DNA of 63,666 nucleotides, filler included, from Reclinomonas americana ATCC 50394 (GCA_048213135.1; 12 parts of 12 records of this genome joined end to end with filler, not necessarily neighbours in it); one strand, 5' to 3'; positions 11,776-63,134 are shown, numbered from the whole stretch's first letter. Numbers and translations are program-made. The notes: a model not told the origin generated them from the sequence alone.

Positions 11776-12851
11776 ATGTCCGTTGCGCCTCCATCTCTCC
11801 CTTCCCGACGCCTGCATGGACACCCTAGCGATGTCAATTGCGTCGCAGTCACTCCCACTGGCCAGCATGTGGTGACTGCGAGTGAATCCAGCGTGCGAGT
11901 GTTGTCTGTGGCGAGTGGAGAGCAGGTGCTGCACTTGCAGGGACACACAAGTAGGCTGAAAGCCACTCCCGACAGTGAGCACATTGTGAGTGGAGCGGTT
12001 GATGGTACTGTGTGCGTATGGGCTGGCGAGCGGAGAGGAAGTGCAGCGTGAAGATAGACAAAGCTTCAGTGCGTTGTGTTGCTGTCTCTCCGGATGGTCA
12101 GTGCATTGTGAGTGGGGGCGGTGATAAGAGTGTGCGAGTGTGGTCGCTGGCGAGCGGCGAGACAGTGCAACGGCTGGAAGGGCACACTCGTACCGTGTTC
12201 TCTGTTGCCGTCACCCCCGACGGGCAGCTCGTTGTCAGTGGGAGTGCGGACAACACAGTGTGCGTGTGGTCACTGGCGAGTGGAGAACAACTGCAACGGT
12301 GGAGAAGTCACTCGGCAGCCGTTGCCTCTGTCGCAGTCACTCCCGACGGTCGGCACGTGGTGAGCGGGAGCTGGGATAGGACGGTTCTAGTATGGTGCGT
12401 GGAGAGCGGCGAGGAAGTGCGACGGATTGATGGACATGATGACGACGTGTACTCTGTCGCCATCACTCCCGATGGTCGTCACGTGGTGATTGGCAGCCTG
12501 GACAACAATGTGCGAGTGTGGTCCATGGCGAGTGGCGAGGAAGTGCAGCGGTTGGTAGGGCACACTGGGCGAGTGGACTCTGTCGCCGTCTCCCCCGATG
12601 GGCAACTCATCGTAAGTGGGTCTAACGACAAGACAGTGCGCGTGTGGTCCACGCCTTCCGGCCTCGCTCGACAGGAGCTCAACACTGCGCGCCTGGCCAT
12701 GCAAGCGATGCAGGAGATGCAGCGAGAGGATGAAGGGGAAGGCGACCCGGATCCGCGTTGCCTGGTGGAGATTGTAATGCGCTGCTTTCTGGTGGAGGAG
12801 GCCGAGGTTGTTGTGCATCGCTGTTTTGCAGACAGCAGCCTGTGTCTGTGA
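11776..12851 (+). pseudogene. WD40 paralogue D, frameshifted near 12020-12050
   Basis: WD40 consensus passes through three frames around 12020-12055; shortened repeat 2; 3' repeats and tail intact. Confidence 0.72.
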
Positions 12852-13037
12852 CGTTGGGGGGGGGGGGGTGGGTGGGGGGGGCGGCGGTGGCGGGGAAGGA
12901 GAAGGTGCATGGGTTGAGAGTTCGTCTTGTGTTGTCTGTGGCTTTCTCTTCGATAGATGGTCATCCTGACGGCTGCTGTTGCTTGTTTTGCTGGTGAATG
13001 AAGGGCTGTCGTTTGTATAGTCGCAGATGCAGACAGC

Positions 13038-13709
13038 ATGGTGTCTTCGAGGCACACAAACGTCGACACGTGTATCGTCCTCCATTACATCTCAGCGACG
13101 GGCAAGGAAGAGCGGCGGTTGGTGGGACACACCGACGGCGTGCTCTCTGTCGCCGTCTTCCCCGACAATGTGCACGCTGTGAGTGCGAGTTCTGACTCGA
13201 CAGTGCGCGTGTGGTCGCTGGCGAGTGGAGAAGAAGAACGGCGGTTGGAGGGACACGCAAAGAGAGTGTTTTGTGTCGCTCTCACCCCCGATGGTCGGCA
13301 TGTGGCGAGCGGCAGTGCAGACAACACACTGCGCTTGTGGTCAGTGGCGACTGGCGAACAAGTGCGTCGATTTTATCATCACACTCTCGGTGTGCTGTGC
13401 GTCACCGTCACGCCCGACTGTCAGTACCTTGTGAGCGGCAGTCATGACAGCACTGTGCGAGTGGTGTCGGTGGCGAGTGGTGAAGAGGTGCGACGGTTCG
13501 TGGGTCACGTTGGCAGCGTGTATTCTNNNNNNNNNNNNNNNNNNNNNNNNNNNNNNNNNNNNNNNNNNNNTTAATTAATTAANNNNNNNNNNNNNNNNNN
13601 NNNNNNNNNNNNNNNNNNNNNNNNNNAGATCGTGCTGCGCTGTTTCCTGGTCGAGGAGGCAGAGGTTTTCGTCCATCGATGCTTCTCGGAAGAGAGTCTC
13701 TGCCTGTGA
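13038..13709 (+). pseudogene. WD40 paralogue E, 5'-truncated, interrupted by a gap
   Basis: WD repeats 13090-13526; tail IVLRCFLVEEAEVFVHRCFSEESLCL* at 13629-13709. Upstream motif abuts a partial repeat and the normal N-terminus is absent. Confidence 0.6.
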
Positions 13710-13923
13710 CTTCAGCGGGAGGTGGGGGAGAAGGTGGAACTCCTAGCCATCGAATGATCCGTGCCTCGATCTTCATCGCAGTTGTCGGTGACAGAAGAAG
13801 AAGCTTTTCATAAACCCTCTTGTTTCCTTGTGGCCATCTGCCTGTCTCCCTCCCACCCTGTGTGGAAAGTCATGCAGACCGCCTTACGCCTTCAAGTCTC
13901 GTCACAGACGTCGACAAAGGTAT

Positions 13924-13943
13924 CGTCCTACTTGAAAAGGACA
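13924..13943. promoter_or_regulatory. Dyad CGTCCT-N8-AGGACA upstream of WD40 F
   Basis: Arms retained in a more diverged paralogue; spacer acttgaaa. Confidence 0.45.
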
Positions 13944-13985
13944 GCGCATTCAACCGTCCTTCTCTCCCTCCCTCTCTCACGCATC

Positions 13986-15122
13986 ATGTCCTCCTCCCCT
14001 CCCTCGCTCCCAAGCATCTGCCTGCGCGGCCACACCAACGCCGTGCATTCTATCGCTATCACTCCCGACGGCCAGCGCATTGTTAGCAGCAGCAGTGATG
14101 GAACAGTTCGCGTGTGGTCACTGGTGACTGGTGAAGAAGAGCGGCGGTTGAACGGTCGTCCCAACTTGATGCTGTCTCTCGCTGTGACACCCGACGGTCA
14201 GCGCGTTGTCGGCGGGGGTGCTGATTCGACGATTCGAGGCTGGTCATTGGTGCACGTGAGCGGAGAGGAGGTTCTCCACTTTAATGGTCACACCCTGGCT
14301 GCGATGTCTGTTGCTGTCACCACCGATGGGCAGCATGTGGTGAGCGGGAGTGCAGATGACACCGTGCGAGTGTGGTCACTGGCGAGCGGCGAGGAGGTGC
14401 GACGATTGAAGGGACATAAGCAGCGAGTTTCCTGTGTCGCACTCACGCCCAATGACGAGTACATTGTGAGTGGAAGCCTAGATAAGACCGTGCGAGTGTG
14501 GTCACTGACGAGTGGCGAGGAGGTACGACGGTTGGAGGGACACACGGGAGGTGTGTACTCTGTCGCCGTCACACCCGACGGCCAGCACGTTGTGAGCAGC
14601 AGTAGTGTCACAGTGCGTGTATGGTCGATGGCGAGTGGGGAGGAGTTGCGACGGTTGGAGGGACACACAGGCTGGGTGATGTCTGTCGCCGTCACTCCCG
14701 ACGGTCAGCACGTGGTGAGTGGCTCCCATGACAAGACAGTGCGCGTGTGGTCACTGGCGAGTGGGGAGGAGGTGCGACGGTTGGTGGAGCACACGGATTA
14801 CGTGCTGTCTGTGGCCGTCTCCCCAGATGGTCAGCACATTATCAGCGGGAGTCGGGATCGCACCGTGCGCGTGTGGTCCACGCCGTGCGGCCTCGCGCGG
14901 CAAGAGCTCAGATGCGCGCAGTCGGCCATGTGCGCGGTGCAGGAAATGCAGCGAGACGTGGATGAGGAAGATCCTGATCCTCGCTGCTTGGTGGAGATTG
15001 TCATGCGGTGTTTCATGGTCGAGGAGGCCGAGGTCGTCGTCCATCGATGCTTCTCGGATGGCAGCCGTTGCATCGTACCATGTATGATCCAAGAGCAGCA
15101 GCTTAGGGTTGTGACTGTGTGA
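13986..15122 (+). CDS. WD40 protein F (7 repeats plus tail), intronless
   Basis: Start MSSSPPSLPSICLRGH matches paralogues; seven WD repeats; tail TPCGLARQEL...DPRCLVEIVMRCF. Confidence 0.9.
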   Translation: MSSSPPSLPSICLRGHTNAVHSIAITPDGQRIVSSSSDGTVRVWSLVTGEEERRLNGRPNLMLSLAVTPDGQRVVGGGADSTIRGWSLVHVSGEEVLHFNGHTLAAMSVAVTTDGQHVVSGSADDTVRVWSLASGEEVRRLKGHKQRVSCVALTPNDEYIVSGSLDKTVRVWSLTSGEEVRRLEGHTGGVYSVAVTPDGQHVVSSSSVTVRVWSMASGEELRRLEGHTGWVMSVAVTPDGQHVVSGSHDKTVRVWSLASGEEVRRLVEHTDYVLSVAVSPDGQHIISGSRDRTVRVWSTPCGLARQELRCAQSAMCAVQEMQRDVDEEDPDPRCLVEIVMRCFMVEEAEVVVHRCFSDGSRCIVPCMIQEQQLRVVTV

Positions 15123-32632: not shown

Positions 32633-33392
32633 ATGATGTTGCGTGCGTGCGTGTGCGTTTATGGGAAGGGGAAAAGATCCAGGCATCGTCCTCTCTCTCT
32701 CTCTTTCTCCCCACTGTGCATGATATCTGTTTTCGAATCTCCGTCTCTACCCCCTCTCCCACTCTCCCCTTTCCCCCCCCCCCCCCCCACTTCACCCCCT
32801 TCCCTTCTCACACAGGAACGCCCCAGTCGATGTGGTCCCCGCCTGGACCTTGGCGCACCGCGGCGACCTGCCCGCCCTCCAGCAACTGATGCACGACCAC
32901 GGCGCCGGCATTCTCCTGCAGCGCGCACACATGAATGGCTTCGGTCAGTCGGTGTATTACATCGCAGCTCGCAAAGGCCACCTGCAGATGTTGCAGTTCC
33001 TGCGCGACTGCGAGGTGGGCGACCAGCTGGCGGCACTGCTGAGCGACGAGAACTGGACGCCGTTGACGGGCGCGGCGTGGAAGGGCCGCGAGGAGGTCGT
33101 GCAGTGGCTGCTGGCCGAGGAGCGCCGGTGCCCACGTGCGGTGGTGCTCGCTGTTTCGCGAGACCACGCCAACCCGGCACGAGCGACGGCCCTGCATTGT
33201 GCGGCACTTGGCAACCGCGTGGAGATTGCCCGGCACATCGCCACGGCCTATCCCGAGCTGCTCGATGTGCGCGATATTGACGGCGACACGGCCGAGGAGG
33301 TGGCACGCGGTGAAGGGCACGACGAGCTGGCCGACATTCTACAAGTCATGCGCGAGCAGCTCGCGCAACGCGATGCCAACGAGAATGACTAG
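32633..33392 (+). CDS. Small ankyrin-repeat protein
   Basis: GQSVYYIAARKGHLQMLQFL, WTPLTGAAWKGREEVVQWLL, ATALHCAALGNRVEIARHI, DIDGDTAEEVA; short first exon inferred, main exon from 32816. Confidence 0.85.
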
Positions 33393-43165: not shown

Positions 43166-44211
43166 ATGTCGGTGAGTGACATGATGCTTGTGCTGTCACT
43201 CTTCTCTCTTCTCTCTCCGTCTCTTCTCTCTCTCACTCTGTGTTAGTGAGCGTGCGTCTCTCTCACACACACGCTCTCGGACTCTCTATCTCTTATCATA
43301 TCTGTCTCAATTCACATACAGACACACTCTTTTACGAACCCTTCTTCTCTCTGTCTTTCTCTCACTCTCTTCCACGCACACATGCTCTATCTCTCTCATT
43401 CATTCACTCTTTTTTATCTTCTCATCCCTTTCTTATCTCAGTCTATCACTTTCTCGCTCATTCGGATATTCAACCACACTTCCTTGCACTGCTTTGTTCT
43501 CCCACTTGTTCTCTCCCACTTATGTGATCTCTCCCACTCCCCCTCTCTCATACGTTCTCAGTCTTTCTGTCTCACTCTCTCTCACGCACACAAACAGTCT
43601 CTGTCTATTTCTTCTCGCCTTATCATTCACTTGCTCTTTTATCTTTCCCTCACTTTCCTCACTCTCTCTCCCTCCCTGCCTCTCTCTCTCGCCCCACCTT
43701 TCCTCTCATTCACTCGCTCTTTTTATCCCCCCTCCTTTTTCACTCTCCCTCCCTCCCTCACTTCCCCTCCCTTTCCACTCTCCCCCATCTCTCTCTCCCT
43801 CTCTCTTTCTCACTCCTTCCCTCCCCTCCTCCACAGTTCTCGGTGCACGTGAGCGCGGCACACGATTCGTTGCTCTCGGTGCAGGTCGACGGCATGTCGA
43901 TCGCATCCACCCTCGCCGACTTGCTGCGCGAGGCCACGCGCTTGCTGCGTGCGAAGAGTGGAGATGGAGAGATGCAGATTGTGGGAGTGGAGAAGCCGAG
44001 TGCATTCAGCATTGAGGAGGGCGGAGGCATTCCGTTGCGCATTCTCGGCATCAACTCGTCCACTCACCTCGTCGTCCGTGTGAACCTTCGCGTGGTGGCG
44101 CTGTCGAGTGGNNNNNNNNNNNNNNNNNNNNNNNNNNNNNNNNNNNNNNNNNNNNTTAATTAATTAANNNNNNNNNNNNNNNNNNNNNNNNNNNNNNNNN
44201 NNNNNNNNNNN

Positions 44212-44273
<62 letters not shown>

Positions 44274-47200
44274 CCCTCCTTCCTCCTTCTTCACTCCCCC
44301 TTCTCCTTTTTCATCCTCTTTCCCCCTCCTGCAGAATGATCAACTCGCAGCGCATCAACATGGCCTTCGAGGCGGTGGAGGAGGCCGTTCGTCTGCGCTG
44401 TCAACGCTCACTGGCGCAATTCAGTCGCGATTACCCCGACTTTGATGTGCGCGCGTGGGTGCCGACATTTACCCCCGCCGGCATGGATACAGCGGCTGTG
44501 AAGGTGTGGCGAGAGCGACATGCTCCGCTCCAAACGGGACGAGTCGCCCTGTTCAAGGAGAAGCGGGCTGTGGCACTGGCCTGGCGCGCTGCCTTTGAAG
44601 CCGATCCCTCGTCCGACCCCCCGTGTGACGGTTTCGACACGACGGCACTCACCTCCATCATGTTGTACGGTGGCCTTGTGCAAGATGATGGTGGCAAGCT
44701 GCTGCTGATTGACGACACTGATGAACGCATGGCGGTGGAGGAGCTGAACGAAGTGAGAAAGGGGTTGGCGCACAAGGACTTGGTGCTGACGGATGCCAGT
44801 GTGCAGGAGTACCTTGGTGACGGCGGTGTCTTCCTGTCCATCCTCCTACTGCTGCAGGTGACGGCCGACGAGCATGCTCGATTATCAACTCGCATCTACG
44901 ATGCTCGTCACGTTCAGCTCACCGTCAGTACATTCGAGGAGCGTCTGCATCGACTGGCTGTGCGTGAAATAGCTTACTATCACGAAGACGAGAGTGTGCG
45001 CAAGGACATGCAGATGTATGTGCCACTGCTGTGTTCACGTGATCATGACGGGTCGCCGAGTGAGACGATGCCGGATCTCTTGTCGGAGGTGGATGTTTTC
45101 CTCTCCGACACCAACACCACACAGCGTGTGCTGGTGCTCTTCGGCAACAGTGGCGCAGGCAAGACCACCACCATGTCCGTGTTGGCCGAGCGAGCATGGA
45201 GACAGTGGCAGACGAGGGAGAGCAGGCGTGTGCCTGTGCGTGTGCCTCTCGGCGCTCTGCGCAACGCAGATGAGCGACTATTGGAGGAGGCATTGGAGCG
45301 ACTGTCGCCCGAGTTGGGATTCAGTGAGTCGGATGTGCGACGGCTGAAGGAAGAACCACTGCTGTTGTTGCTTGATGGATACGACGAGTTGTACCGTGGT
45401 GTGAATCTGTTTTTCAAGAACCAGCTGGATGTGTGTCGGAAAGTGAAGGTGATTATCACGTGTCGTGAGGATTACGCACTGACGGCGCTGGGTGGTGTAA
45501 CGCAGTATCGACGGTACTTTGCACCGGTGGATGCACGCGGCCAGTTGCGCATGCAGCAGCTGACGGAGCGACACATTGCGCCATTTGACAAGGAGCAAAC
45601 TGCGCAGTATTTTGAGCGACTCGTGCAACGGGATGGTGATGATGATGATGATGATGATGCCGATGATGAAGTGCGATGGTCGACTGCCGAAGAGTACATG
45701 CGTGCGTTGAAAAATGTGCGTGGACTGGACGCACTGGTGTCGAATCCGTTCATGTTGTCGGTGGTGGCTCGCGTGCTGCCGCAGTTGGTGGCGAGCGGAG
45801 TGCACCGACCGACTCGGTGTGATGTGTTTGACAAGTTTATTCGGCAGTGGATTGCGCGGGAGCAAGAGAGGCAGACGTGCCTCGGTGCGGAGCGTGTGCC
45901 AAATGAGGACACCTGTCTCGCATTCTGTGAGGGGCTGGCACGGTTGATGCACGAGACAAAGGTGGTTCGCGTATCCGTGACGGAGAGTCGGTCGGGTGAT
46001 GAGGAGGATGACTTTGGTGGCGCACCACTTGCCATGCGTCGACGAGTGGAAGAGGGACCATTTGACAAGTTCCTCGGTCACAAGAACCAGCATGTGCGAG
46101 TTTGCTGTCCGATTGTACGACGGTATGCGACGACGCAGTGGGGCTTTGTGCATCTATCGTTGCTGGAGCACTGTGTGGCGCGGCATGTGTTTGCGTGGGA
46201 CACGTGGGATGAGGAGAGGAAGATGACGATGCAAGATGTGCAGCAGCATGTGTTGGCGGTGCGACTATTGAACGACAGACCGTCACTGGTGGAGCAAGTA
46301 GCCGAGGTGGTGCGACGGTCTCATGCATTACAGGGGAGACTGTGGGAGGTGATTGAGTTGTCACGGGAGGTGGACAGTCGGCGAGTCGTGACGGCAGCCG
46401 CGAATGCAGCAACGGTGCTGTGCGCAGCGCAAGTGTCGTTCAGTGGGCGCGACTTGTCGGGAGTGCGAGTGAGGGGTGCGGATTTGAGAGATGCGGTGAT
46501 GCACAGGACGGTGTGGAGAAAGGCAGACCTGCGTGAGGTGAATATGTGCATGGCGTTTGCAAAGGAGGCGGATTTCCGAGGGGCGGATGTGACGGGAGTG
46601 AAGTGGCCGAGGAAGCCGTTGGTGGAGCACAGTGATTCGATCAACTCTGTCGTCGTCTCGCCAGATGCGCAGCACGTGGTGAGCGCAAGTGAGGATAAGA
46701 CGGTGCGAGTGTGGTCGCTGGCCAGCGGGCAGGTTGTGCACTTGTTGGAAGGACATGCTGGCGGGGTGCGTGCTGTGACCATCACTTTCGATGGCCAACA
46801 CATTGTGAGTGGCAGCGAGGACACTACTGTTCGAGTTTGGGCCATGGAGAGTGGACAGGAAGTGCAACGATTGGAGGGACACACTGCTACTGTGTGCTCT
46901 GTTGCCGTCACTCCTGACGATCAGTTCATTGTGAGCGGAGGTGGCGACAAGACCGTGCGAGTGTGGTCATTGGCGAGTGGGGAGGAGGAGCGACGGCTGG
47001 AGGGACACACCGGGTGGGTGTGGTCTGTCGCCGTCACCCCCGATGGTCAGCACGTTGTGAGTGGAAGCGGTGACAAGACTGTGCGGGTGTGGGCGTTGAC
47101 NNNNNNNNNNNNNNNNNNNNNNNNNNNNNNNNNNNNNNNNNNNNTTAATTAATTAANNNNNNNNNNNNNNNNNNNNNNNNNNNNNNNNNNNNNNNNNNNN

Positions 47201-48309
47201 TCGCGCGTCGCGGCGAGCTCGTCGTGAGTGGAAGTGAGGATAGAACGGTGCGTGTGTGGTCGCTGGAGAGTGGCGAGGAGGTGCGACGGGTGGATGGACA
47301 CTCTGGCTATGTGTCTTCCGTCGCTCTTACTCCCGACGGCCTGCACGTTGCAAGCGCGAGCGAAGACAAGACCGTCCGTCTGTGGTCGGTCGACAATGGT
47401 GAGGAGGTGCGGCGGTTGGATGAGCACGCCAGATCGGTGCGGTCGGTTGCCGTCTCTCGTGATGGGAAGTACGTGGCGAGTGCGGGTGGCTACGACAAGA
47501 CTGTGCGTGTGTGGTCCGTAGCGAGTGGAGAGGAGGTGATGCGGTTGGAGGGACACACCGACGCAGTGATGTCGGTCGCCTTTACTCCCGACGGGCAGTT
47601 TGTTGTGAGTGGCAGTTATGACATGACTGTGGGTGTGTGGTCACTGTCGTCTGGCCAGGAGGTGCGTTGGCTAAGGGGGCACACGGGTGAGGTGAAATGT
47701 GTTGCCGTCACTGCCGATGGCCAGTTTGTCGTCAGTGCATGTCAGGACAAGACGTTGCGAGTGTGGCCGTTGGCGGCGGAGAGTGGTGAGGGCGAGGTGC
47801 GACGGCTGGAGGGGCACACTAGCGTGGTGTGGTGTGTGGCCGTCACTCCCGACGGTCAGCAGACAGTGAGCGGGAGTCATGACAAGACTCTGCGGGTGTG
47901 GTCGCTGGCGAGTGGAAAACAAGTGCGGCGGATGGACGGGCACACCGGGTTCGTGCAGGCTGTTGCCGTGACCCCCGATGGTCGACGCGTTGTGAGTGGG
48001 AGTGAGGATCGCACAGTGCGGGTGTGGTCGCTGGCGAGTGGCGAGGAGGTGCTGCGGTTGGAGGGACACGGTTCGTGGGTCTGGTCAGTCGCCGTCACCC
48101 CTGATGGGAGGCACGTGGTCAGTGCGAGTGATGATCGGACGGTGCGGGTGTGGTCGCTGGAGGTGGAGGAGGGAGAGGGGGGGAAGGGGAAGGAGGGGGT
48201 GGGGGTGGAGGGGAAGGAGGAGTGTGTGAGGGGAGGTTTGCTTGAGCGTGTTATTGGGTCGTTCTTTGTGGCGGACTTTACCGGTGTGCGGTATGGAGAA
48301 GAAGAGTAA
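43166..48309 (+). CDS. NLR-like protein 1: Ubl - HEPN - NACHT - pentapeptide - WD40 (two internal gaps)
   Basis: Micro-exon ATGTCG|gtgagt at 43166; Ubl exon from 43837; large exon from 44335 with FDTTAL..RKGLAH, GNSGAGKT, LLLLDGYDEL, IITCR, NPFML, pentapeptides (RDLSG/ADLRD/ADLRE/ADFRG) and at least 12 WD repeats. Confidence 0.85.
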
Positions 48310-48947: not shown

Positions 48948-51900
48948 ATGAGTGCCTATGACAAACGTCAAGCTCGACTGCAAGCCGAGGCTGCCCTTCT
49001 GCAAGCCGCCGCTGCTGCTCAAGCTGCTACTGCTCGCCAACCTGCTGCCTCCGTCGTTGCCTCCGATCCTCGCCTTTCCATCGGCGACGAGGTGATTGTG
49101 GTGGGCGAGGCGCCGCATGTGGAGCGCTTTGCGTTCCGCTCGGTGCTGGCGATGAATCGTCGACCCGCGGATGATGCTGCTGGCAGTGCACCGCCTGTGT
49201 ACATGGAGCATGTGGTGGAGGAGTACCGCAAGACAGCGGAGGACTATCAGTGTCCAGTGTGCATGGTGAGTAGATGGAGAGAGAGAGAGAGAGAAAGGAG
49301 AGAGAGAGAGAGAGAGAGTGAGTGAGATGACATGACAGGACGATATCACGGAAACGAGGGAAAGTCAGCCGGAGATGGGATTAGAGAGCTCGACTCAAAG
49401 CAGCAAGTCCAGGGCAGTGAGACCAGGAAAGACACAGATAGGCAGAACATGCTGACTCGCACAGAGCGAAAGAGGAGAATCACAATGCACATGAGAGTCT
49501 GACAACAACCGATTGCAGCAGGAGCTGTGCCAGCCTGATTTTGTCGTGTGCTCCAACGAGGTGCATCACTTGTGCCGGTGAGTGTGTTTCACGGATGCGT
49601 AGCTGAGTGCGTGATGGCGTGCTGACGAGAGCTGCGAGCAGTGCGCACATGAGTGAGGCACCGCAAGGTAAAGATTGATGCGGGTGCGGAGTGACATCTG
49701 CCGCGACAGCTTTGGAGCCCATTCGGCGGCTTAAGCTGACTTACGAGAACCTGGAGGTGACGTGCTCACAGATGGCGGTGCTTTTCTCTCGAAAGCCGTT
49801 GTGCTGACTGAGTGTGTCACAGATACTGTGCCCCAAGTGTCGACAGCGAATGGTTTGTGTGTACAGCACTCTGTCTCTGATATTCTCCTTTCCTCTCGTC
49901 TCTTCCGCCCCTCTCAGTTTTCCTTTCCTCTCACTTCTTCTCTTTTCGTTTTCTCTCCCCTCCATTTCTGTTCTCTACTTCTTGTCTTTTCAATACTCAT
50001 CTCCGCTGCCTCGTCTCCCTCGCCGCCTCTCCACTCGTCTCGTCTCAGTTCCTTTCCAAATCTCCGTCACTTGCACTTCTTTCTGCCCTCTCCATTTCCT
50101 CTTCCATTCTCGCGTGTCTGCTGTTCCTCTGCCCATCACCTCGACTCGTGTGGTCTCAGTTCATTTCGATTCGTCTCCGCCGTTTCTTCGTCATCTCCTC
50201 TTCTCTACTCTCTCCGCCTTCTCCCATCTCCTCCCGCCTGTTGCGACTCAACTTTTCTCCCTCTTCCTATCATGTCGTCACGATTCCATCCCTTACTTTC
50301 CTCTCTTCTCATCTTCTCCTCTTCTCGCCACTCCCTTCTCTTTGACTCATTCATGTCGTCTTCTCTTCTTCTTTTTCCTTGCTCTATTTTCTTCCCCTTG
50401 CCTCCCCCCTCACACATCCTCTTTGCAACAGACTGTCGGCGACTACTACCGCACGCACGCTACCTCGGCGTGCCTGTACAGTTGCGACGTGTGCAAGGCG
50501 AGCATGCCCTTGAACCGCACGGCAGAGCACGCGTGGAGTGCACGTGAGTGTCTGCGCGAGTGTCCGTTTGCGTGCGGCGTGCGGGTGCCGATGCGCGAGA
50601 TGGCGGAGCACAGTCGCACTGGGTGTGTGCGCACGTGCCCGCGATGCGGTGTGAACTCCACGCTTGCCAACATGCGCCAGCACCTAGGTGCGTATTTGAC
50701 GAGATGATTCGTGAAATCGTCTTCACCTCATGTGAGTGAGAATAGGGCGAGTGCGCGATGAAACCGGTGGCGTGCCGTGCGGCGGATCTTGGGTGCACGA
50801 CGCGCGGCCCGCAGCGCGACGTGCAACAGCACGAGCAGCAGTGTGATTTGCTGCGTGTCGAGAGGCCTCTCCGAGAGGTGAGATGCACGAGGAAGAGCGG
50901 TTATTGCGACGTTACTCTTTACCCCTCTGCCTCACAGCTGCATGCCCGTGTGAGTACGTTGACGGAGACCGTGGTGCGTATGGAGGAGGTATCACGCGAG
51001 AAGGAGCTGCGTCATGCGGAGGTTATGATGCAGTTGCAAGAGCAGCGCCGCCGTGGAGAAGAGCAGCAGAATCGCGTCGACGCGATGCTGGCGGCGTTTG
51101 AGCGGCAACAATTGCGGGTGACGGAGATGGAGCGGCAGTTGCTGGTGCAGAGTCGGCAGCTGCAGGAGGAGACGGCAGCCATTGACCGACGGCTGCGGAA
51201 CGGCGACGAGCAGACAATCAAGGTGTGCTGGTCTTTGATAACCACTTACTGCAGTCCGCTTACTTGCATCCGCGGCAGCTTATGCGTGCCGTCAATCCAC
51301 TGCTCGTCGAGGCAGCCGCGCGCGAGCTCGAGGCCGAAATGAGACAGCGGGAGGTGGCTGCGCGAGCCGAGGAAGAGCGTCGCCAGCGTGAGGGAGAGGT
51401 ACTTCTTTTCTGCTGAGTTCTGGCTTGGTGTGATTTGGTGCTAAATTGGTCCAACGTGCAGTATGCTGCAGCTGGTGAGTGAGTTCTCAATCACGTAAGA
51501 GAACTTAGAATGACAGGTCGTAGTTGTCGTTTTGCTGTTGATTAATATTATGTCGATGGCTTGTGCATGCCAACTTGCATGGCCAACTGGCTCTCTCTGT
51601 TGGTGTCGCTCCCCTTCTTACTTCGTGTATCTGTGTGTACTTGTGTCTTGATTGTTCTGTGTGGTCAGCGGATCGCCGCGAGGTCGTGCGCGCCTGGAAT
51701 GAGCTGCTGCAGACGTGTACGACCATGAGCATAGGGTTCACATCTGGTCAAGTACCGAGAATTCGTGCCTGCCCCGTTTGCTACCATATTCAAGGTGCGA
51801 TCTAGTCTCCGTTCAACGTGCGGCACAATTTGCTTACCCGACTCTCGCGATACTGTAGAGATGGCTGGCCCCTGCAAACACATGGCTTGCCAGTCGTGCG

Positions 51901-52768: not shown

Positions 52769-53899
52769 TCACCACTCCTCCGCACCGCGCTCAATCACCT
52801 CAGCATCCTCCAACACAAAGCACCGCAGCACAACGTCCACGAGAATCCACTCACGGCGCTTATCCTCCTCCTCCTCACCAAGCAGCTCATGGACGGCCGA
52901 CACAGCTGCCTTTGCGGCCGCCATCTCCTGCCGAGCGAGACCCCGCGCCGACGACCACACTCGTATCCTCTCGTCTCTGCACCCGCTCACAATGTGCTGG
53001 CCGTCGGGGGCGACGGCAACGGAATACACCGCCGCTTCGTGGTTCTCCAACCGTCGCACCTCCTCGCCGCTCTCGAGGCACCACACGATAATGCTTTGGT
53101 CTTGACTGCCACTCACAACGTACAGACCGTCGGGGGTGACCGCGACAGACCACACCGCGCCAGCGTGACCCTCGAGAATCCACCATTCGTCCCCACTCTC
53201 GAGAGACCACACACGCACCGTCTCGTCTCTGCTTCCACTCACCACGTGCTGCCCGTCGGGGGTGATGGCCACCGACAACACCGCTCCCGTGTGCCTCTCC
53301 AACCGCCGCACCTCCTCGCCGCTCTCAAGAGACCACACTCGCACGGTGCAGTCATCGCTGCCGCTGACAATGTGCCGCCCGTCGGCAGTGACGACGACAG
53401 ACCACAGTTGGTCCGTGTGGCCTGTCAAGCACAGCACCTCGTCGCCACTCTCGAGGGACCACACGCGCACTGTCTTGTCGCGACACCCGCTCACCACGTG
53501 GAGGCCGTCGGCGGTGACGGCCACCGACATTACCCCTGCGCCCACCGCAAGTCGCTGAACTTGTTGGCCAGTGGTCGCGCACCACACTCTCATCGTCAAG
53601 TCTTGACTCCCGCTCACGATGAATCGTCCGTCGCGGGTGCAAGCGGCACTCCACACCCAGGAGGTGTGGCCCTCCAGGCGGTGCAATTGGTGCCCACTTG
53701 CCAGCGATGACACGAGCACGGTCTTGTCGAAGCTGGTGCTGATGATGTGATGGCCGCGGGGGGTGAGGGTGACGGAGGAGATGGAGTGGTGGTGGTGGTG
53801 GTGGTGGAGGGTCTGTGGGGGGTGAGGGAGAGGGTGAGGGAGGACGGGGAGGGGGAGGGGGAGGAGAGGGAGGGAGGGAAAAGGAACTTTGCTCGTCAT
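52769..53899 (-). CDS. WD40 protein G (7 repeats plus tail), intronless
   Basis: 376-aa ORF; same repeat consensus; tail GLARQEM...WILVDVVLRCFVLEDAEVI. Confidence 0.9.
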   Translation of the reverse strand: MTSKVPFPSLPLLPLPLPVLPHPLPHPPQTLHHHHHHHSISSVTLTPRGHHIISTSFDKTVLVSSLASGHQLHRLEGHTSWVWSAACTRDGRFIVSGSQDLTMRVWCATTGQQVQRLAVGAGVMSVAVTADGLHVVSGCRDKTVRVWSLESGDEVLCLTGHTDQLWSVVVTADGRHIVSGSDDCTVRVWSLESGEEVRRLERHTGAVLSVAITPDGQHVVSGSRDETVRVWSLESGDEWWILEGHAGAVWSVAVTPDGLYVVSGSQDQSIIVWCLESGEEVRRLENHEAAVYSVAVAPDGQHIVSGCRDERIRVWSSARGLARQEMAAAKAAVSAVHELLGEEEEDKRREWILVDVVLRCFVLEDAEVIERGAEEW

Positions 53900-54061
53900 G
53901 TCACATATGAGGTGTTATGTGAACAAAGTTGCTCGCTGCATGTGTGATTGTCACATATCTCTTGAAGAGTATCGCGAGAGTGCACTGTGAGGCAAGTCCT
54001 TTGGCGACCTACGAAGAACTTCAACAACAGCAAATACAGCAACGAAGAACCTGCAATAAGA

Positions 54062-57000
54062 ATGTCGGTGAGTCGCGTGTTATTGAGTGAGTGGGGGACG
54101 CGACACCGAACAATTTCTGGGTCTCTCTCTCTCTCTCTCTCCCTCTTTCTTCTCTCTCTCTCTCTCTCAGACAGACACACGCTGATGTTTGTCATATTTG
54201 TCATGACAGTTCTCTGTCAAAGTGACTGCGGCGCATGATTCATCGCTGGCGGTGGTGGTGGAGGGCTTGACGACCATATCCACTCTCGCGGACTTGCTAC
54301 GCGAGGCCACGTGCTTGATGCGTTGGAAGAGTGGGGATGCGGAGATTGAGATTGAGGGAGTGGTGGAGCCCCTGCCATTCGACATTGATGACATGAGCGG
54401 AACGAAGCTGAAAGCATTAGGCATCAGCTCGTCCACCCAACTTGTTTTCCGCGTGAGGCATGGCGGGACATCGCTTTCAAGTGGCGGGTGTGTGTGTGTG
54501 CGCGTGTGTGTGTGTCAATGCTTCTGCAAACAGCACTCTGTTTGTGAACTCTAGAAGTCAATAGTAATCCATATGCCGTTGCGCGCGTGCAGGAAGCGGC
54601 CTGCTGAGTTGCCAGCATTCAACGAGTCTCGCACAAAGCGTCGGAGAACAGAGAATTCTGTGAACACTGCCGCTGCGGTGCCAATGGATGACGACGATGA
54701 TGCAGCGTCTGGTACAAGCAGTGGAGCCTCAATGGACGATTCCACCATGTGCGAGCGCGGGAGCGATATGCCGGAAGTTGATAGCGGTTCACGTGTGGAT
54801 GTGGTAAGTGCAGATTTGTCGGTGTTGATGTCAATTATTGTCAGACGCACTGCGTTTCTTGAGCACCTTGTTGATATATTGTGCTATAGGAAATTGGACA
54901 CGTCAGAATCGGCAACAAGCCTGTGATTGCAATGGATGACAGGTGCTGTAGTGGAGACGGTGCACGCACGCCTCATTTTTTTTTGGCGAGATCATTGATT
55001 CATTGCTAATTGCAGCTACTTTAAACTTGCTGTTGGTGGACTGTTGTCTGCTGGTCCGGGAACCGCGCCTGGCGTAAAGGAGGAGGCTGACACGGCGACG
55101 GTGGCGAGGTGAGTGTTTGGTTGTAGTTTGAAAGAATCGCTTATATGCACTGACTTTGGACGACAGGAGAATCAACTACAACCGCATGAGTATGGCTTTC
55201 GATGTAGTGGAGGAGGCCGTGCGTCATCGCTGCCAAAGCGCACTGGCACAGTTCAGTCGCGACCATCCCGACTTTGATGTGCGGGCGTGGGTGCCGAGTT
55301 TCACGCCTGCTGGCATGGATACGGCGTCGATAAAGGCATGGCGTGAGCGGCATTCTCCACTCCGATCTGGACGAGTTGCTCTGTTCAAGGAGAAGCGGGC
55401 TGTGCTGTTAGCCTGGCGTACTACTTTCGACACCGATGCCTCATCTGACCCTCCGTGTGACGGTTTCGACACAACGGCACTCACCTCCATCATGCTGTAT
55501 GGTGGCTTCGTTATGGATGACGGTCGCAAGCTGCTGCTGATTGATGATGTTGATGAGCGCAAGGCGGTAGAGGAGCTGAACAAAGTGAGAAAGGGATTGG
55601 TGCACAAGGACCTCATGGTGACGGGTGCCACTGTGCAACTGCACCTTGGTGACGGTGGTGTCTTCCTCTCCGTCCTCTCACGACTGCAGTTGACGGTGGA
55701 TGAGCGTGCTCGATTCTCCGCTCGTGTCTGCGAGGCGCGCTGTCTCGATTTCAGTGTCAGCATATTCGAGGAGCGGTTGCGTTGTCTGGCTGTATGTGAG
55801 CTCTCATTCTACCAGCATGACGAGAGTGTGCGCAAGGACATGCAGATGTATGTACCACTGCTGTGCTCCCGTGAGCGTGACGTCTCCTCGAGTGACAAGA
55901 TGACGGATCTCTTGTCGGAGGTGGATGCTTTCCTCTCCGACACCAACACCACGCAGCGTGTGCTGGTGCTCTTTGGCAACAGCGGGGCCGGTAAGACCAC
56001 TACCATGTCGGTGCTGGCTGAGCGAGCATGGCGGCAGTGGCAGACGAGAGAGAGTCGGCGCGTGCCTGTGCGTGTGCCTCTTGGTGCACTGCGAAATGCC
56101 GACGAGCGACTGTTGGAGGAGGCGTTGGAGAGATTGTCACCCGAGTTGGGATTCAATGCAGCGGATGTGCGACGGTTGAAGGAGGAGCCGTTGCTGTTGT
56201 TGCTTGACGGGTACGACGAGTTGAACCGTGCTGTGAATCTGTTCAACAACCAATTTGACGGATTTCGCAATGTAAAGGTGATTATCACCTGTCGCAGCGA
56301 TTACGCACTGACAGCACTGGGTGGTGTGACGCAGTATCGACGGTACTTTGCGCCGGTAGATGCACGAGGACAGTTGTGCATGCCGCAGTTGATGGAGAGA
56401 CACGTTGCACCATTCAACAAGGAGCAGATTCAGGAGTACTTTGAGCGATTGGTGCAATTGGGTGGTGATGATGTTGATGAAGTGCGATGGTCGACTGCCG
56501 AGGAGTACATTCATGCACTGAAGAGTGTGCATGGACTGGATGCACTGGTATCGAATCCGTTCATGCTGTCTGTGGTGGCACGTGTATTGCCGCAATTGGT
56601 GGCGAGTGGTGTGCAGCGGCCGACTCGGTCTGATGTGTTTGATCGCTTCATGCGACAGTGGATTGCAAGAGAGCAAGACAGGCAGACTTGTCTTGGGGCG
56701 GGTCGTGCGCCGAGTGAGGAGACATGTCTGGCGTTCTGTGAGGGACTGGCGCGATTGATGCATGAGAGGAATGTGGTTCGCGTGTCTGTGACGGAGAGTC
56801 TGTCGGGAGATGAGGAGGACGAGGGTGAATTTGGTGGCGCGCCACTTGATCGTCGTCGACGGGTGGAGGGGTGGCCATTTGACAAGTTCTTTGGTCACAA
56901 GAACCAGCATGTGCGAGTGTGCTGTCCAATTGTGCGACGGTATGCGACAACGCATTGGGGATTTGTGCATCTGTCGTTGCTGGAGCACTGTGTGGCACGG

Positions 57001-59262
57001 CATGTGTTTGCGTGGGAGATGTGGGATGAGGAGAAGAGATTGACGGTGCAAGATGTGCAGCAGCATGTGCTGGCAGTGCGCCTTCTGAATGATCGACCAT
57101 CGTTGGTGGAGCAGATGGCCGAGGTGGTGCGAAGGTATCCCCGACTACAGGGCAGACTGTGGGAGGTGATTTGGTTGTCGTGTGAGGTAGATGAGGAGCG
57201 AGTGGTGACGGCAGCAGCGAATGCAGCGACGGTGCTGTGCGCAGCGCAAGTGTCGTTCAGTGGACGAGATCTGTCGGGTGTGCGAGTGAGGGGTGCGGAT
57301 TTGAGAGATGTGGTGATGCATGGAACAGTGTGGAGGGGAGCGGATTTGCGAGGGGTGAATCTGTGCATGGCATATGCGAGGGAGGCAGATTTCAGGCAGG
57401 CGGTTATGTCAGGTGTGAAGTGGCCGAAGGAGCCGATGAAGGGACCCAGTGAGTCGTTGGCTTGTAGCATAACGGTCACTCCCGATGGCCAGTACATTGT
57501 TTGTGGAGGAACAGACGGTACAGTGCAAGTGTGGTCACTGGCGAGTCATGTGAAAATGCCGCCGTTGGAGGGACATACAGTAGCGGTGCGCTCGATCGCT
57601 GTTTCTCCCGATGGACGGCATATTGTGAGTGGCAGTGATGACATGTCAGTGCGAGTGTGGTCACTGGCGAGTGGCGAGGAGGTACGACGACTTCAGGGAC
57701 ACACTCGTGGGGTGACTTCTCTCGCTGTCGCACCCGATGGACAGCACATCGTGAGTGGCAGTGGAGACAATTCGGTGCGAGTGTGGTTGCTTGCGAGCGG
57801 AAAGGAAGTTCGACTTCTTGAGGGTCATACTCACGCCGTGCTGTCCATTGCTATCACTCCCAACGGACTGCACATAGTCAGCGGAGGTGAGGACAGCACA
57901 GTGCGTATGTGGTCACTGGCGAATGGGAAGGAGCTGCAGCGTTTTGATGGACACGGAGGTAAAGTGATCTCTCTCGCTGTCACCCCCTGTAATGGATACA
58001 TTGTGAGCGGAAGCGACGACAAAACAGTGCGACTGTGGTCGCTGGCAAGCAGGGCGGAAGTGGGACGATTCGAGGGACATGCTGGAGGGGTGCGAGCTGT
58101 CGCTGTGGCTCCCGATGGTCAGCAGATCGTAAGTGGGAGTGAAGACATGACAGTGCGAGTGTGGTCGCTTGCGAATGGAGAAGAAATTCGTCGATTGGAA
58201 GGCCACACTGAGTCGGTGCTTTTTGTTGCCGTCACTCCCGGGCCCGATGGTGAGCGCATCGTGAGTAGCAGCAAGGACCAGTCAGTGCGAGTGTGGTCGA
58301 CGGCAACAGAGAGTGGCGAAGGAGTACGACGGTTGGGGGGGCATACCAACTCCGTCTCTTCCGTCGCTGTCACTCCGGATGGTCAGTTCATTGCGAGTGG
58401 GAGCTTCGACATGACTGTACGGTTGTGGCATTTCGCGAGTGGAGAAGTGGTGCGATGTTTTAAGGGTCACACTAGAGATGTGTGTTCTGTCGCAATCACT
58501 CCTGATGGTCAGCATGTTGTCAGCGGAAGCCGTGACACTACCGTGTGCCTGTGGTCTGTGGCCAGTGGAGAGGCACTCCGGCGATTAGAGGGACATGCGG
58601 GACGAGTATATTCGGTCGCCATTACTCCCGACAGAAAGTACATTGTGAGTGGGGGGGACGATTTGACCGTGCGCTTGTGGACTGTCGAGAGTGGAGAAGA
58701 AGTGCGACTGTTAGAGGGTTTTGTATGTGGATTGTGGTTTGCCACCATCACTCCTGACTGTGCTCATCTTGTTTGCGGGGATCATGACCGGACAATGCGA
58801 ATACTGTCGATTGCTAGTGGAGAAACGCGATGGTTGGAGGGACACACAGATGCTCTGTCATCTGTTGCTGTGACTCCAGACAGTAAGCACGTTGTCAGTG
58901 GCAGCAAGGACAACACGGTGCGAGTGTGGTCCATGACTACTGGCGAAGAAGTGCGGCGATTAGTTGGACACATCGATACCGACGGAGTACGGACCGTCTC
59001 CGTAACCCCCGACGGTCTGTTCGCCGTAAGTGGCAGCTATGACGACACGGTGCGAGTGTGGTCTCCCTCACGAAGAGAAGAACTGCGACTTGGAACGCGA
59101 TATGACCGCGCCAATTCTTCAGCTGGCACTGCCGTCACTGTCGATCATACCGTTCGAGTGTCCGGGAAGTCGATTTTCGTGTTTCAGCGACACAGAGAGG
59201 GAGAGCTGCTTGAGAGAATTTTTGGTTCATTTCACCCCAATTTTACCGACGCATTGTACTAA
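54062..59262 (+). CDS. NLR-like protein 2: Ubl(GG) - NLS - HEPN - NACHT - pentapeptide - WD40 (13 plus 1 degenerate repeats); complete model
   Basis: Phase-consistent exons 54062-54067, 54210-54487, 54593-54803, 54890-54942, 55016-55108, 55167-59262; RKGLVH 55588-55605; Walker A GNSGAGKT, Walker B LLLLDGYDEL. Confidence 0.88.
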
Positions 59263-59399: not shown

Positions 59400-60000
59400 A
59401 TGACACGTGTCACCATCGCCGCACTGCTGCTCACGCTGCTCTTGCTGCTCGCCATCAGCGGTGAGTGAAAACAACAAACGCACTTAGTGTGTGTGTGTTC
59501 CGTTTTGCACGCACACACTGACGCAATCACTCACACACAGTGCGCGCCAACGAGGACGCACCAGCAGGAGAGGAGAGCGTGCAAGTGGAGAGTGAGAGTG
59601 GTGAGTTGGGGGGGCGGGGCGGAGAGAGTGAGTGGGAGGAAGACAAAGTGTGCAATGTCTGACTCGTTTGGTTTTTGTGTTGTTAGCGCCTGCTGGAGAC
59701 GTTAGTGAGGATCATGTGCTTGCGGGTGAGTGGGGGGAGGGAGAGAGGAGAGAGGGAAGAGAGGAGGGGAAGGAGTGATGTGATGAGTCAATGTGTGTTG
59801 AGATAAGCACGCACACACACATGCAGAGAGAGAGAGAGAGAGAGAGAGGAGGAGAGAGAGGAGGAGAGAGAGAGAGAGAGAGANNNNNNNNNNNNNNNNN
59901 NNNNNNNNNNNNNNNNNNNNNNNNNNNTTAATTAATTAANNNNNNNNNNNNNNNNNNNNNNNNNNNNNNNNNNNNNNNNNNNNCGCTCTCTCTCTCTCTC

Positions 60001-61101: not shown

Positions 61102-62268
61102 TCACCACCCCCGCGCCCTCCACACCACCACCTGCGCCTCCTCCACCATGAAGCACCGCATCACCACCTCCACCAAACACCTCTCATTGTGCGGCACCGC
61201 GCCACCTGCGCGCCCCCACCTCGGCATCATCGCCTGCACCGCCTTGCGGGCCTGCTCGGCGGCCGCCAACTCCCTTCGCGCCAGCGCCAACTCACTGGCC
61301 CACATGGTGATGGCGCCGGCGGCGTCGCCTGCCACCACGTACTGCCCATCGGGCGTGACATTCAGCGTCTGGTAACGCGGCGACGGCGCCGCCTCCTCTT
61401 CTTCCTCCTCCTCCTCCTTGTCAAAGACGGGCGTCAACTCGTCTCCGGTCTCCAACGACCAGCGACGCACCGACCCGTCGCTGACGAGCGCACAGAACGA
61501 CCGGCCGTGCGGCGTCATGGCCAGCTTCAAGGCGCGCACCGGCCACCGGCGCACCCTCCGCCCGCTGCTCAGCGACCACATGCACACCTCCCGGTCGCTG
61601 TTGCTCAACGCGTGCTCGCCGTCGGGCGTCACCACCACGTCGTGCTTGACGTGCCGATCGCCTCCGTACGGCCTCCCCTCCTCGTCGGCATCGTGCAGTC
61701 GCCGCACGAGGCCACCCGTGGAGGCCGACAGCACATGCACCGTCGGCTGCCCGACACAGCGGACAAGCACGTACTTGCCATCCACAGTGGCCGCCAACGA
61801 ACTGACATACCACGTGCGACTCGAGGTCATTACGCGCTGCCCGCTGGCGACCGACATCATATGCACGCAATGGTCGGTGCATCCGAGCAGAACGCGCTGT
61901 CCGTCGGCCGCCATGCACATGGCGGCATCGAACACCAAATCCGTGCTCACGCCCAACTCGAACTCGCGCAGGATCTGTCCGCTCGCAAACGACCACACCA
62001 GCACCTTGGCGCCGGGTCGGAAGCTCCCGCCAATGACGCACTCGCCGTCGCTGGTGCAGGCGACGGCCACCACCGGCTTTTTGTGGCCGTGATAACGGCG
62101 CCACTCGAGGCCATAATTGGCTCCTGTCTGGAGAAGGGACCAGGCGCGCACGAGGGCGTCTTCGCCGCCAGAGAGAATGTATTGCGAGTCGGCAGTGATG
62201 GTGAGAGCGAGAATGGCGCCGGTGTGAGCATGGAACGTGGACGATGATGACTGCTCCGTAGAGGTCAT
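61102..62268 (-). CDS. Divergent WD40 protein H with conserved tail, intronless
   Basis: AHTGAILALTITADSQYILSGGED and GHKKPVVAVACTSDG; tail LALARRELAAAEQARKAVQAM..ERCLVEVVMRCFMVEEAQVVV. Confidence 0.85.
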   Translation of the reverse strand: MTSTEQSSSSTFHAHTGAILALTITADSQYILSGGEDALVRAWSLLQTGANYGLEWRRYHGHKKPVVAVACTSDGECVIGGSFRPGAKVLVWSFASGQILREFELGVSTDLVFDAAMCMAADGQRVLLGCTDHCVHMMSVASGQRVMTSSRTWYVSSLAATVDGKYVLVRCVGQPTVHVLSASTGGLVRRLHDADEEGRPYGGDRHVKHDVVVTPDGEHALSNSDREVCMWSLSSGRRVRRWPVRALKLAMTPHGRSFCALVSDGSVRRWSLETGDELTPVFDKEEEEEEEEAAPSPRYQTLNVTPDGQYVVAGDAAGAITMWASELALARRELAAAEQARKAVQAMMPRWGRAGGAVPHNERCLVEVVMRCFMVEEAQVVVWRARGW

Positions 62269-63134
62269 CAATCGGAATAAGAAGGGTCTTTTTTTGGGAC
62301 TTGATGTGGGACACGGGAGAAAAGGGGGAAGGGAGAAGGGAGGGAGGGGATAAGGGAAGGGGAGAGAGGGAAAGGGATGGGACTAAGAGGCGAAAGGTGT
62401 GAGTGCGAGGTGAGCTGCGACGTCGACGTCTGTTCGGTTTTGTATGTTGCTGGGGAAGAGGTGTTGCAGAACATGTAATTAATGTGGGAAACACGAAAGA
62501 GAGCAAGCGATTGAAAACGAACAGCTGCGGATGAGAAAGGACTGGAGGAGGTGACTGAGCGTGGAGAGAGAGGCATGCGCAAATATCAACACTCAGCAAT
62601 TTTGCAGAACAACTGGGGAAAGTAGGAGAGGAAAGAAAAGAAATGGCACCCAACGAGTTGAGCGAGGACCACAGACGAAGGCGGCAGGCGACAGGGAGAG
62701 GATGGGAAGAGGACATCTCCATGAGCAAGCGACAGAGGAAAGAATCGAGCTGCAGAAGAGGGCGAAAGATGCGAAGGATCATGAGAGACATGCAAATCTC
62801 AGCACTGAGTGAGCATAGTATTCGAGCAGAAAGCAGCCCATGGTGTGATAGGAAATGTGCTCGGGAGGTGACCGCGAGGAAATCTCAACAGCACGCGTAT
62901 TAGGAGGAGGAGAAGGAGGAGGAGAGAGAGAGAGAGAGCGCGCGAGAGAGAGAGGGAGAGAAGAGAAGAGAACAAGCAGTACTCCAGGAGAATAAGTGAG
63001 GACCACAGACGAAGGCGATAGGAAGGGGAGACAAACAAACTCTCAGCATCCAGCCTACTTGCAGTACAGCTGAGCAAAGAATCTTTCCTCTCGACTCTCC
63101 ATTCACAGAAGCACCTTGCTCATCGGCATGCCCT

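Follow-up and report, generated by a model that had tools for sequence, protein, structure and literature searches.

Fusions of HEPN domains with NACHT modules are already known. Table 1 of Anantharaman et al. 2013 (PMC3710099) lists the HEPN domains of DZIP3 and CXorf38 with NACHT in animals and Swt1-clade HEPN domains with signal transduction ATPases with numerous domains (STAND) in bacteria, and the same paper describes DZIP3-type HEPN-NACHT expansions in Nematostella, oyster and Capsaspora. Separately, the preprint of Kibby et al. describes pentapeptide repeats and beta-propellers as the sensors of bacterial NACHT proteins, whose effectors differ between close relatives. HEPN-NACHT receptors have been described from sequence analysis, and no biochemical test of one was seen in the literature covered. 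Here we analyzed a gene of Reclinomonas americana ATCC 50394 (GCA_048213135.1) that lies at 54062..59262 (+) of a stretch of 63,666 nucleotides (nt), filler included, referred to as the window. Judged by its predicted domains, the gene encodes a eukaryotic NACHT-pentapeptide-WD40 receptor of the STAND type, similar to NOD-like receptors (NLRs; NOD, nucleotide-binding oligomerization domain), with an extra domain at the effector position. Our best explanation, held tentatively and at somewhat less than an even chance, is that it is a ligand-triggered NLR-like receptor with a diverged Swt1-like HEPN RNase as effector, present as a tandem pair.

The main open reading frame (ORF, 55132..59262, +) runs for 1376 codons without a stop and gives a protein of 1358 amino acids (aa) from its first ATG (P0002). 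Pfam placed NACHT, pentapeptide and WD40 domains on it, all above cut-off (Table 1), in agreement with the NLR-like architecture that had been read from the sequence alone. The NACHT match (PF05729, 46.4 bits at a cut-off of 26.7) covers positions 1-163 of the 167 of the profile. Both Walker motifs are intact, A as GNSGAGKT (aa 264) and B as LLLLDGYDEL (aa 337), and G67, G69, K70, D141, G142, D144 and E145 are invariant in an alignment of 13 sequences. The pentapeptide repeats (PF00805) scored 30.8 bits at a cut-off of 20.2. By eye, the WD40 array comprises 13 full units and one partial unit (about 14 blades), and it likely folds into two seven-bladed propellers.

A search with aa 200-770 against 5.8 billion proteins returned 71 matches at E<=0.001 among the 8000 candidates scored. 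The best protein match was a protein of a Nitrospirota metagenome-assembled genome with a metallophosphoesterase-NACHT-pentapeptide-WD40 order (P0004; 28% identity, 96% coverage of the query, E 1.3e-39), and a NACHT-pentapeptide-WD40 protein of the fungus Entomortierella parvispora (P0005) matched with E 6.5e-34. Relatives of this type are collinear with the target at 25-28% identity from NACHT to pentapeptide. Together with the bacterial loci L001-L005 they share with it the succession of NACHT, winged-helix, pentapeptide and WD40, the Y[VI]PL motif ahead of the P-loop and an F-x-H-x-S-x-x-E motif. Across 185,579 prokaryote genomes, 547 candidate stretches came up, of which 286 proved to be relatives. 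The nearest of these loci come from metagenome-assembled genomes (MAGs) of Gammaproteobacteria (E 6e-53), Chlamydiae (E 9e-51 and 1e-37), Nitrospirae (E 2e-49) and Legionellaceae (E 2e-40). By score, and not by a tree, the Chlamydiae (L001, L003), Legionellaceae (L005) and Gammaproteobacteria (L002) MAGs, at E 1e-37 to 6e-53, stand apart from actinobacterial and myxobacterial relatives at E 1e-8 to 1e-18. We take the nearest prokaryotic relatives to come largely from lineages that live inside amoebae as intracellular associates. The title of the Legionellaceae record mentions a Naegleria.

What precedes the NACHT module varies among these proteins. The nearest genome loci carry ARM-like repeats, a phosphoesterase or almost no front, and the precomputed Pfam lists of further full-length matches give PNP_UDP, TIR, caspase, HTH or Mrr-type fronts. 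The front of the target has no detectable likeness to the metallophosphoesterase, ARM-like, PNP_UDP, TIR, caspase or HTH fronts. Unlike the bacterial and fungal NACHT-pentapeptide-WD40 genes, the target gene is interrupted by introns and belongs to a WD40-rich cluster of eukaryotic DNA. Fungal HET-E/NWD proteins of the NACHT-WD40 type presumably resemble it in their long WD40 array, clustered paralogues and variable N-terminal effector. The target differs from them in the pentapeptide segment between NACHT and WD40, in WD40 units that are only 63-72% identical in DNA and not near-identical, and in the lack of a HET, HeLo or PNP front. As far as its predicted domains go, the chassis follows the tripartite effector-NOD-sensor plan that the preprint of Kibby et al. 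sets out for NACHT proteins of bacteria.

Residues 206-257, approximately, match the stretch directly before the P-loop in bacterial relatives, with the Y[VI]PL motif in common, and the domain left to be explained is therefore aa 1-205. Its only homologue in our searches was the paralogue in the same window (74% identity). Pfam gave no family at E<=10, NCBIfam nothing better than YaaA at E 0.2, a profile search of PDB 0 chains at E<=10, Atlas no usable match, and PADLOC only matches at the level of the P-loop. None of 1983 word-sharing candidates matched aa 1-255 at E<=0.01, 291 pattern matches in a metagenome scan yielded 0 relatives, and a hidden Markov model (HMM) of the two paralogous N-termini matched the pre-P-loop linker alone in 71 bacterial N-termini. 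The sole match in 1.84 billion representatives, a 995-aa bacterial tandem-repeat protein aligned in 10 stretches, was judged spurious. Between the two paralogues the N-terminal domain is under purifying selection (omega 0.24, synonymous divergence dS 0.64). Its best-conserved part is the core that carries the motifs described below (84% aa identity, omega 0.21), and the longest invariant run within aa 1-205 is S86-G107.

A HEPN RNase-type effector had been proposed from two strings ahead of the NACHT P-loop, and both are where they were said to be: CDGFDTTALTSIML at aa 91-104 and AVEELNKVRKGLVH at aa 127-140, upstream of Walker A. For comparison we collected HEPN_Swt1 (PF18731) reference domains from prokaryote genomes, with matches in 12 of 401 of one phylum and 27 of 351 of another; L093 and L120 were left out because they were under the Pfam cut-off. 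Seven reference proteins re-checked in Pfam gave HEPN_Swt1 with E 3.2e-41 to 3.6e-6. In all seven, HEPN sits N-terminal to a DUF499 AAA+, SNF2 or FHA module, the FHA fusion being that of L103:1501-2820 (Pfam). An N-terminal HEPN fused to an NTPase (DUF499 AAA+, SNF2) is the norm among the bacterial comparators, and the domain of the target likewise lies ahead of an NTPase.

We used the two-sequence alignment of the target and paralogue N-termini as the hhalign query. It aligned to HEPN_Swt1 profiles of 12 sequences (score 22.2, P = 0.011, aa 90-143), 40 sequences (score 26.1, P = 0.0012, aa 86-145) and 160 sequences (score 26.5, P = 0.003, 72 columns), and to a profile of one alphaproteobacterial solo subfamily (score 27.0, P = 0.0035, aa 125-161). 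The search that supplied this last group had a single solo subfamily in its top 120 and contributed little diversity. In every run FDTTALTSIML fell on the D-x-[AT]-x-L-L helix of the family and EELNKVRKGLVH on E-L-x-x-[VI]-R-N-x-W-A-H, with 47-72 of about 150 columns aligned for the first three profiles. By sequence the target shares with Swt1-like HEPN domains the D-x-[AT]-x-L-L stretch, a spacing of about 35-40 residues and the pattern E-L-x-x-[VI]-R-x-x-x-x-H. It differs from them in reading R-K-G-L-V-H against the common R-N-x-W-A-H and in its length, which exceeds the 115 positions of the family model by about 60-90 residues.

Controls for these scores were of several kinds. Column shuffles reached the observed scores in 0 of 300 and 0 of 120 cases (maxima 21.9 and 18.8). 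Scores were also low (11.0-15.7) when the query or the profile was reversed and when two other 255-aa stretches of the target protein served as query. Real N-terminal windows of bacterial NACHT relatives scored at least 23 in one of 118 cases; these windows of 255 aa were drawn from those 71 of the 80 loci in which a P-loop is preceded by >60 aa, and regions of <150 aa were skipped. When the 40-sequence HMM was run over the 1015 six-frame ORFs of at least 40 aa in the window, the paralogue came out on top (E 0.022) and the target in third position (E 0.49), and the matched region was identical in the two. A fragment of the paralogue (aa 88-155) also matched PF18731 over the motif with E 0.16 and 12.7 bits, below the cut-off of 27.5.

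The residue after the arginine is Lys, as had been cautioned, and polar N, D or H is typical of HEPN at this position (PMC3710099). However, the caveat carries less weight than it was given: Lys is not disqualifying, because bona fide HEPN_Swt1 members also carry R-K, namely L103 (R-K-K-W-A-H; Pfam E 1.7e-25) and L104 (R-K-T-W-A-H). Other members have G, A, T, D or C after the arginine. The resemblance to HEPN is suggestive and no proof. Descent of the N-terminal domain from HEPN, as a very diverged Swt1-like member, has a little better than an even chance, and we would put its being an active RNase slightly below even.

An alternative is that the N-terminal domain of about 205 aa has nothing to do with HEPN and is instead a helical effector or adaptor specific to this lineage, such as a membrane-targeting or death-fold-like module, and that the likeness of the FDxTxL and Rx4H motifs arose by chance. 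The receptor would still work through ligand-induced NACHT oligomerization and would signal otherwise. Several points speak for this alternative and weigh against HEPN ancestry. No HEPN family in Pfam exceeded its curated threshold, and the target, whole or in fragments, had no hit at E<=10; the domain is without homologues in any search. Only 55-72 of about 205 residues align to HEPN, roughly a third, and the first helix and WW motif of HEPN have no convincing match. An arginine in helix 4, about 11 residues after the histidine in most comparators, is absent from the target. By chance, Rx4H is expected 0.48 times in 205 aa of the same composition, and although R135-KGLV-H140 is identical in both paralogues, a copy with 74% identity carries almost no information on conservation. 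The lone bacterial window with a high score is an unrelated ARM-repeat region, which at 26.8 scores as high as the target. Within the NACHT family N-terminal domains are highly swappable, as seen in the fronts of the relatives and in the preprint of Kibby et al.

Modeling of the N-terminal domain with AlphaFold2, as had been suggested, did return an all-helical structure from the two-sequence alignment, but its predicted local distance difference test score (pLDDT) of 36.7 makes it unusable. In this low-confidence model a helix ends at R135, and H140 falls in the loop after it; Anantharaman et al. 2013 (PMC3710099) place the HEPN motif at a helix end and the following loop. A P-value of about 1e-3 would not stand out if some 25,000 families were scanned blindly. 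It counts here solely because HEPN had been hypothesized beforehand and suits the context, and that hypothesis was itself picked after the very motif had been seen.

Against a chance likeness, three HEPN_Swt1 profiles of different make-up agree with the query in the order, the spacing and the register of both motifs, none of the shuffled, reversed or same-protein controls exceeds 21.9, and the region tops the unbiased scan of the 1015 ORFs. The setting, an effector position on a STAND NTPase, is also one for which HEPN fusions are on record (PMC3710099). For the proposed HEPN RNase-type effector there is neither proof nor refutation: the profile alignments place both motifs in register (P 0.001-0.01), and the curated Pfam thresholds are not reached. 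We assign the unrelated-effector explanation a sizable probability that nevertheless stays clearly below one half.

It is improbable that the domain descends from HEPN and is catalytically dead, acting in RNA binding or dimerization as proposed for eukaryotic Swt1. Inactive Swt1-clade HEPN domains are described by Anantharaman et al. 2013 (PMC3710099), and both the Lys in place of N, D or H and the missing helix-4 arginine would suit one, but the target has both R135 and H140, neither of which differs in the paralogue, R-K occurs in bona fide family members, and the core is more constrained than the rest of the domain.

A likeness to the DZIP3/hRUL138-type proteins of animals would be one of concept: a HEPN effector on a NACHT module, with lineage-specific expansion (PMC3710099 Table 1). 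No DZIP3/hRUL138 HEPN family appeared in the Pfam scans at E<=10, and target and paralogue differ from this type in having no Pfam HEPN match besides the weak one to PF18731. The earlier statement that HEPN-NACHT fusions exist in animals is borne out by DZIP3 and CXorf38 in the same table. The novelty of the whole combination had been overrated, as HEPN-NACHT fusions on the one hand and pentapeptide/propeller NACHT sensors on the other are in print (PMC3710099; Kibby et al. preprint). The five-part combination was not seen described in a keyword search of the literature, a kind of search that cannot show absence from print.

The sequence-only reading had further claimed that five small upstream exons splice in phase and add a ubiquitin-like (Ubl) domain. 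The six-exon model could be rebuilt exactly: all introns are GT..AG, the coding sequence of 4740 nt has a terminal stop only, and 221 aa are added ahead of MSMAFD. However, 49 single-intron in-frame GT-AG paths likewise link the ORF at 54555 to the main ORF, and splicing in phase is therefore weak evidence. Exon 2 is a real conserved coding exon. The model frame is its sole stop-free frame (codon log-odds +18.7), and it has a counterpart before the paralogue (43837-44079, 60% aa identity) with an omega of 0.53 and a dS of 0.58 (on 54210-54455), similar to the 0.64 of the NACHT exon. The micro-exon ATGTCG followed by GTGAGT also recurs before the paralogue (43167-43172), with a similar 'cagcaacgaag' upstream. 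Intron 1 of the paralogue (43173-43836) is 664 nt of nearly pure CT-rich low complexity, whereas that of the target has 142 nt.

The Ubl part of the claim fared less well, as the ubiquitin fold was not confirmed. Exon 2 of the target matched Pfam Ubiquitin_4 with 13.9 bits and E 0.056, under the cut-off of 22.8, and the paralogue exon gave nothing against the same family. Atlas language-model neighbors include ubiquitin clusters (0.88-0.89), which serve as leads only. AlphaFold2 gave a model of strands and a single helix (pLDDT 51); Foldseek returned 0 matches to it at E<=0.001, and a PDB profile search gave no ubiquitin-like chain. Exon 2 may be called ubiquitin-like by its pattern only, with thin support.

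Exon 3 has a codon log-odds of +9.2 in the model frame, the other two frames having stops, and no match in Pfam. At 54588-54650 (+) within it lies RKRPAELPAFNESRTKRRR, followed by a DDDDD acidic run. This basic stretch (RKRP..KRRR) resembles a bipartite nuclear localization signal. Neither exon 4 nor exon 5 shows a codon signal (log-odds +2.2 and +0.9), and nothing that matches exons 3-5 occurs in the assembled part of the paralogue locus, whose gap falls exactly there.

These exons can be read in another way, independent of the question of HEPN ancestry. A gene of its own, made of exons 1-3 and encoding 206 aa (Ubl-like domain with basic/acidic tail), would end at TGA 54924-54926 by read-through of intron 3, and the NACHT gene would start from ATG 55186 behind a 5' untranslated region (5'UTR) exon (55016-55108) and a 58-nt intron. 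Consistent with this, the ORF through intron 3 stays open to a stop, the donor of exon 4 is weak, the codon signal of exons 4-5 is nil, exon 5 has no ATG, the alternative in-frame paths are numerous (49), exons 3-5 are unmatched at the paralogue, and the neighbors are tightly packed, with a divergent WD40 ORF about 150-160 nt from ATG 54062. On the other hand, of five consensus-like donors (GTRAG[TGA]) in the 1.2 kb of 54000-55200, four exactly close model exons 1, 2, 3 and 5. Exons 1-2 and the NACHT exon were co-duplicated (dS 0.58 and 0.64), and the intergenic distance would be only about 90 nt. The NACHT exon also starts at a conserved acceptor rather than at promoter-like sequence: blastn similarity between the two loci begins at acceptors 54206 and 55171, and the main-exon acceptor is homologous to the paralogue acceptor at 44335 (pyrimidine tract and cag). 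We grant the separate gene a considerable probability, though below one half, and lean slightly towards the Ubl-like exon and the basic/acidic linker being the N-terminus of the same protein as the NACHT exon. Kinetoplastid-style trans-splicing, prompted by the pyrimidine tracts before AG, was rejected in view of the consensus GT donors at ORF ends and the fragmented ORFs.

If the N-terminal domain is a diverged, active HEPN, the receptor could work in four steps. A ligand would be bound by the WD40 propellers; the NACHT module would then exchange its nucleotide and oligomerize; the N-terminal domains would be drawn together; and a composite HEPN site of R135 and H140 would cut RNA, leading to cell arrest or death or to the destruction of an invader's RNA. 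In the broadest reading, all upstream exons belong to one protein of 1579 aa with Ubl, nuclear-targeting linker, cryptic active HEPN, NACHT, pentapeptide repeats and two WD40 propellers. Such a protein would serve a microbial eukaryote as a receptor in immunity or cell death that cuts RNA in response to a ligand, possibly in the nucleus, with an effector diverged beyond standard profiles and a chassis whose occurrence in Chlamydiae, Legionellaceae and Nitrospirota hints at gene exchange between intracellular bacteria and host. We consider this reading unlikely when taken as a whole.

The tandem paralogue was located by tblastn of the target protein against the window, which found these two NACHT copies and no further one. 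The match runs from 44354 onward, and its identity to the target is 74% over aa 1-255 and 83% from NACHT to pentapeptide. Two scaffold linkers (44113-44211 and 47101-47200) cut the paralogue, its ORF being interrupted twice by linkers, and the C-terminal tail LLER[IV].GSF is common to both proteins.

The window is eukaryotic-looking DNA with a GC content of 50-60%. It contains 11 linkers of the form N44-TTAATTAATTAA-N44 (22 N-runs, e.g., 44113-44156 and 44168-44211, or 59884-59927 and 59940-59983) and is made of 12 contigs scaffolded via six-frame-stop spacers, from which real gap sizes cannot be read. The WD40-rich cluster includes ORFs at 7128-15119 (+), 52772-53914 (-) and 61105-62382 (-). 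Beyond the target, at least seven WD40 ORFs have a strong match (PF00400, E down to 8e-74), several of which stop at linkers. The divergent ORF at 52772-53914 (-) is the one that ends near the putative start codon at 54062, and the spacing suggests a very short common upstream region and a compact gene layout. Tracts of (CT)n, (GA)n and (CA)n are frequent between ORFs across the window. Elsewhere in it we observed an ankyrin-repeat ORF at 32724-33389 (+; Ank_2, E 1.4e-15) and, at 49808-50704 (+), a weak match to a ubiquitin-binding zinc finger (zf_UBZ, E 6e-4, under cut-off).

Table 1. Positions of the features discussed, counted from the first letter of the window; residue numbers are those of the protein from ATG 55186.
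Feature	Position	Strand	Remarks
Tandem paralogue	43167..48309	+	Exon 1, exon 2, assembly gap, NACHT-pentapeptide-WD40 ORF
Putative exon 1	54062..54067	+	ATGTCG, donor GTGAGT
Putative exon 2, 81 codons	54210..54452	+	Acceptor cag, donor GTGAGG at 54453
Putative exon 3	54555..54803	+	Basic RKRP..KRRR, then acidic linker; donor GTAAGT
Putative exon 4, 53 nt	54890..54942	+	Weak donor GTGCTG; least secure exon, sets the phase in the model
Putative exon 5, 93 nt	55016..55108	+	Strong donor GTGAGT; no ATG; coding or 5'UTR
Main exon	55167..59262	+	Stop included, first ATG 55186; N-terminal domain, NACHT, pentapeptide, WD40
N-terminal domain, aa 1-205	55186..55800	+	Lineage-restricted, effector position, helical in low-confidence model
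HEPN(Swt1)-like core, aa 86-145	55441..55620	+	FDTTALTSIML helix and ..EELNKVRKGLVH motif
R135-x4-H140 (RKGLVH), candidate catalytic motif	55588..55605	+	Aligns to HEPN_Swt1 R/H in every hhalign run
Pre-P-loop segment, aa 206-257	55801..55956	+	Part of NOD module; aligns to bacterial relatives
NACHT NTPase, aa 258-422	55957..56451	+	Pfam PF05729, E 5e-12
Pentapeptide repeats, aa 704-743	57295..57414	+	Pfam PF00805, E 2.1e-7
WD40 array	57496..59064	+	Pfam WD40, E 1.4e-128, 12 stretches

Should the N-terminal domain be unrelated to HEPN, the gene would be an unremarkable member of its class, a further NACHT-WD40 paralogue whose front end is an orphan. If the HEPN assignment is true, HEPN-NACHT receptors would extend past animals and bacteria to another eukaryotic lineage. 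The effector would then have drifted below the reach of curated profiles with its catalytic motif kept, and would provide a test case for hidden effectors of NLR-like proteins. Two tandem copies, a cluster rich in WD40 ORFs and nearest relatives in intracellular bacteria are in keeping with the repeated bacterium-to-eukaryote transfer and fast effector swapping in STAND immunity that are set out in the preprint of Kibby et al. The interest of the locus lies in its orphan, possibly cryptic-HEPN effector, joined to a chassis that it has in common with intracellular bacteria.

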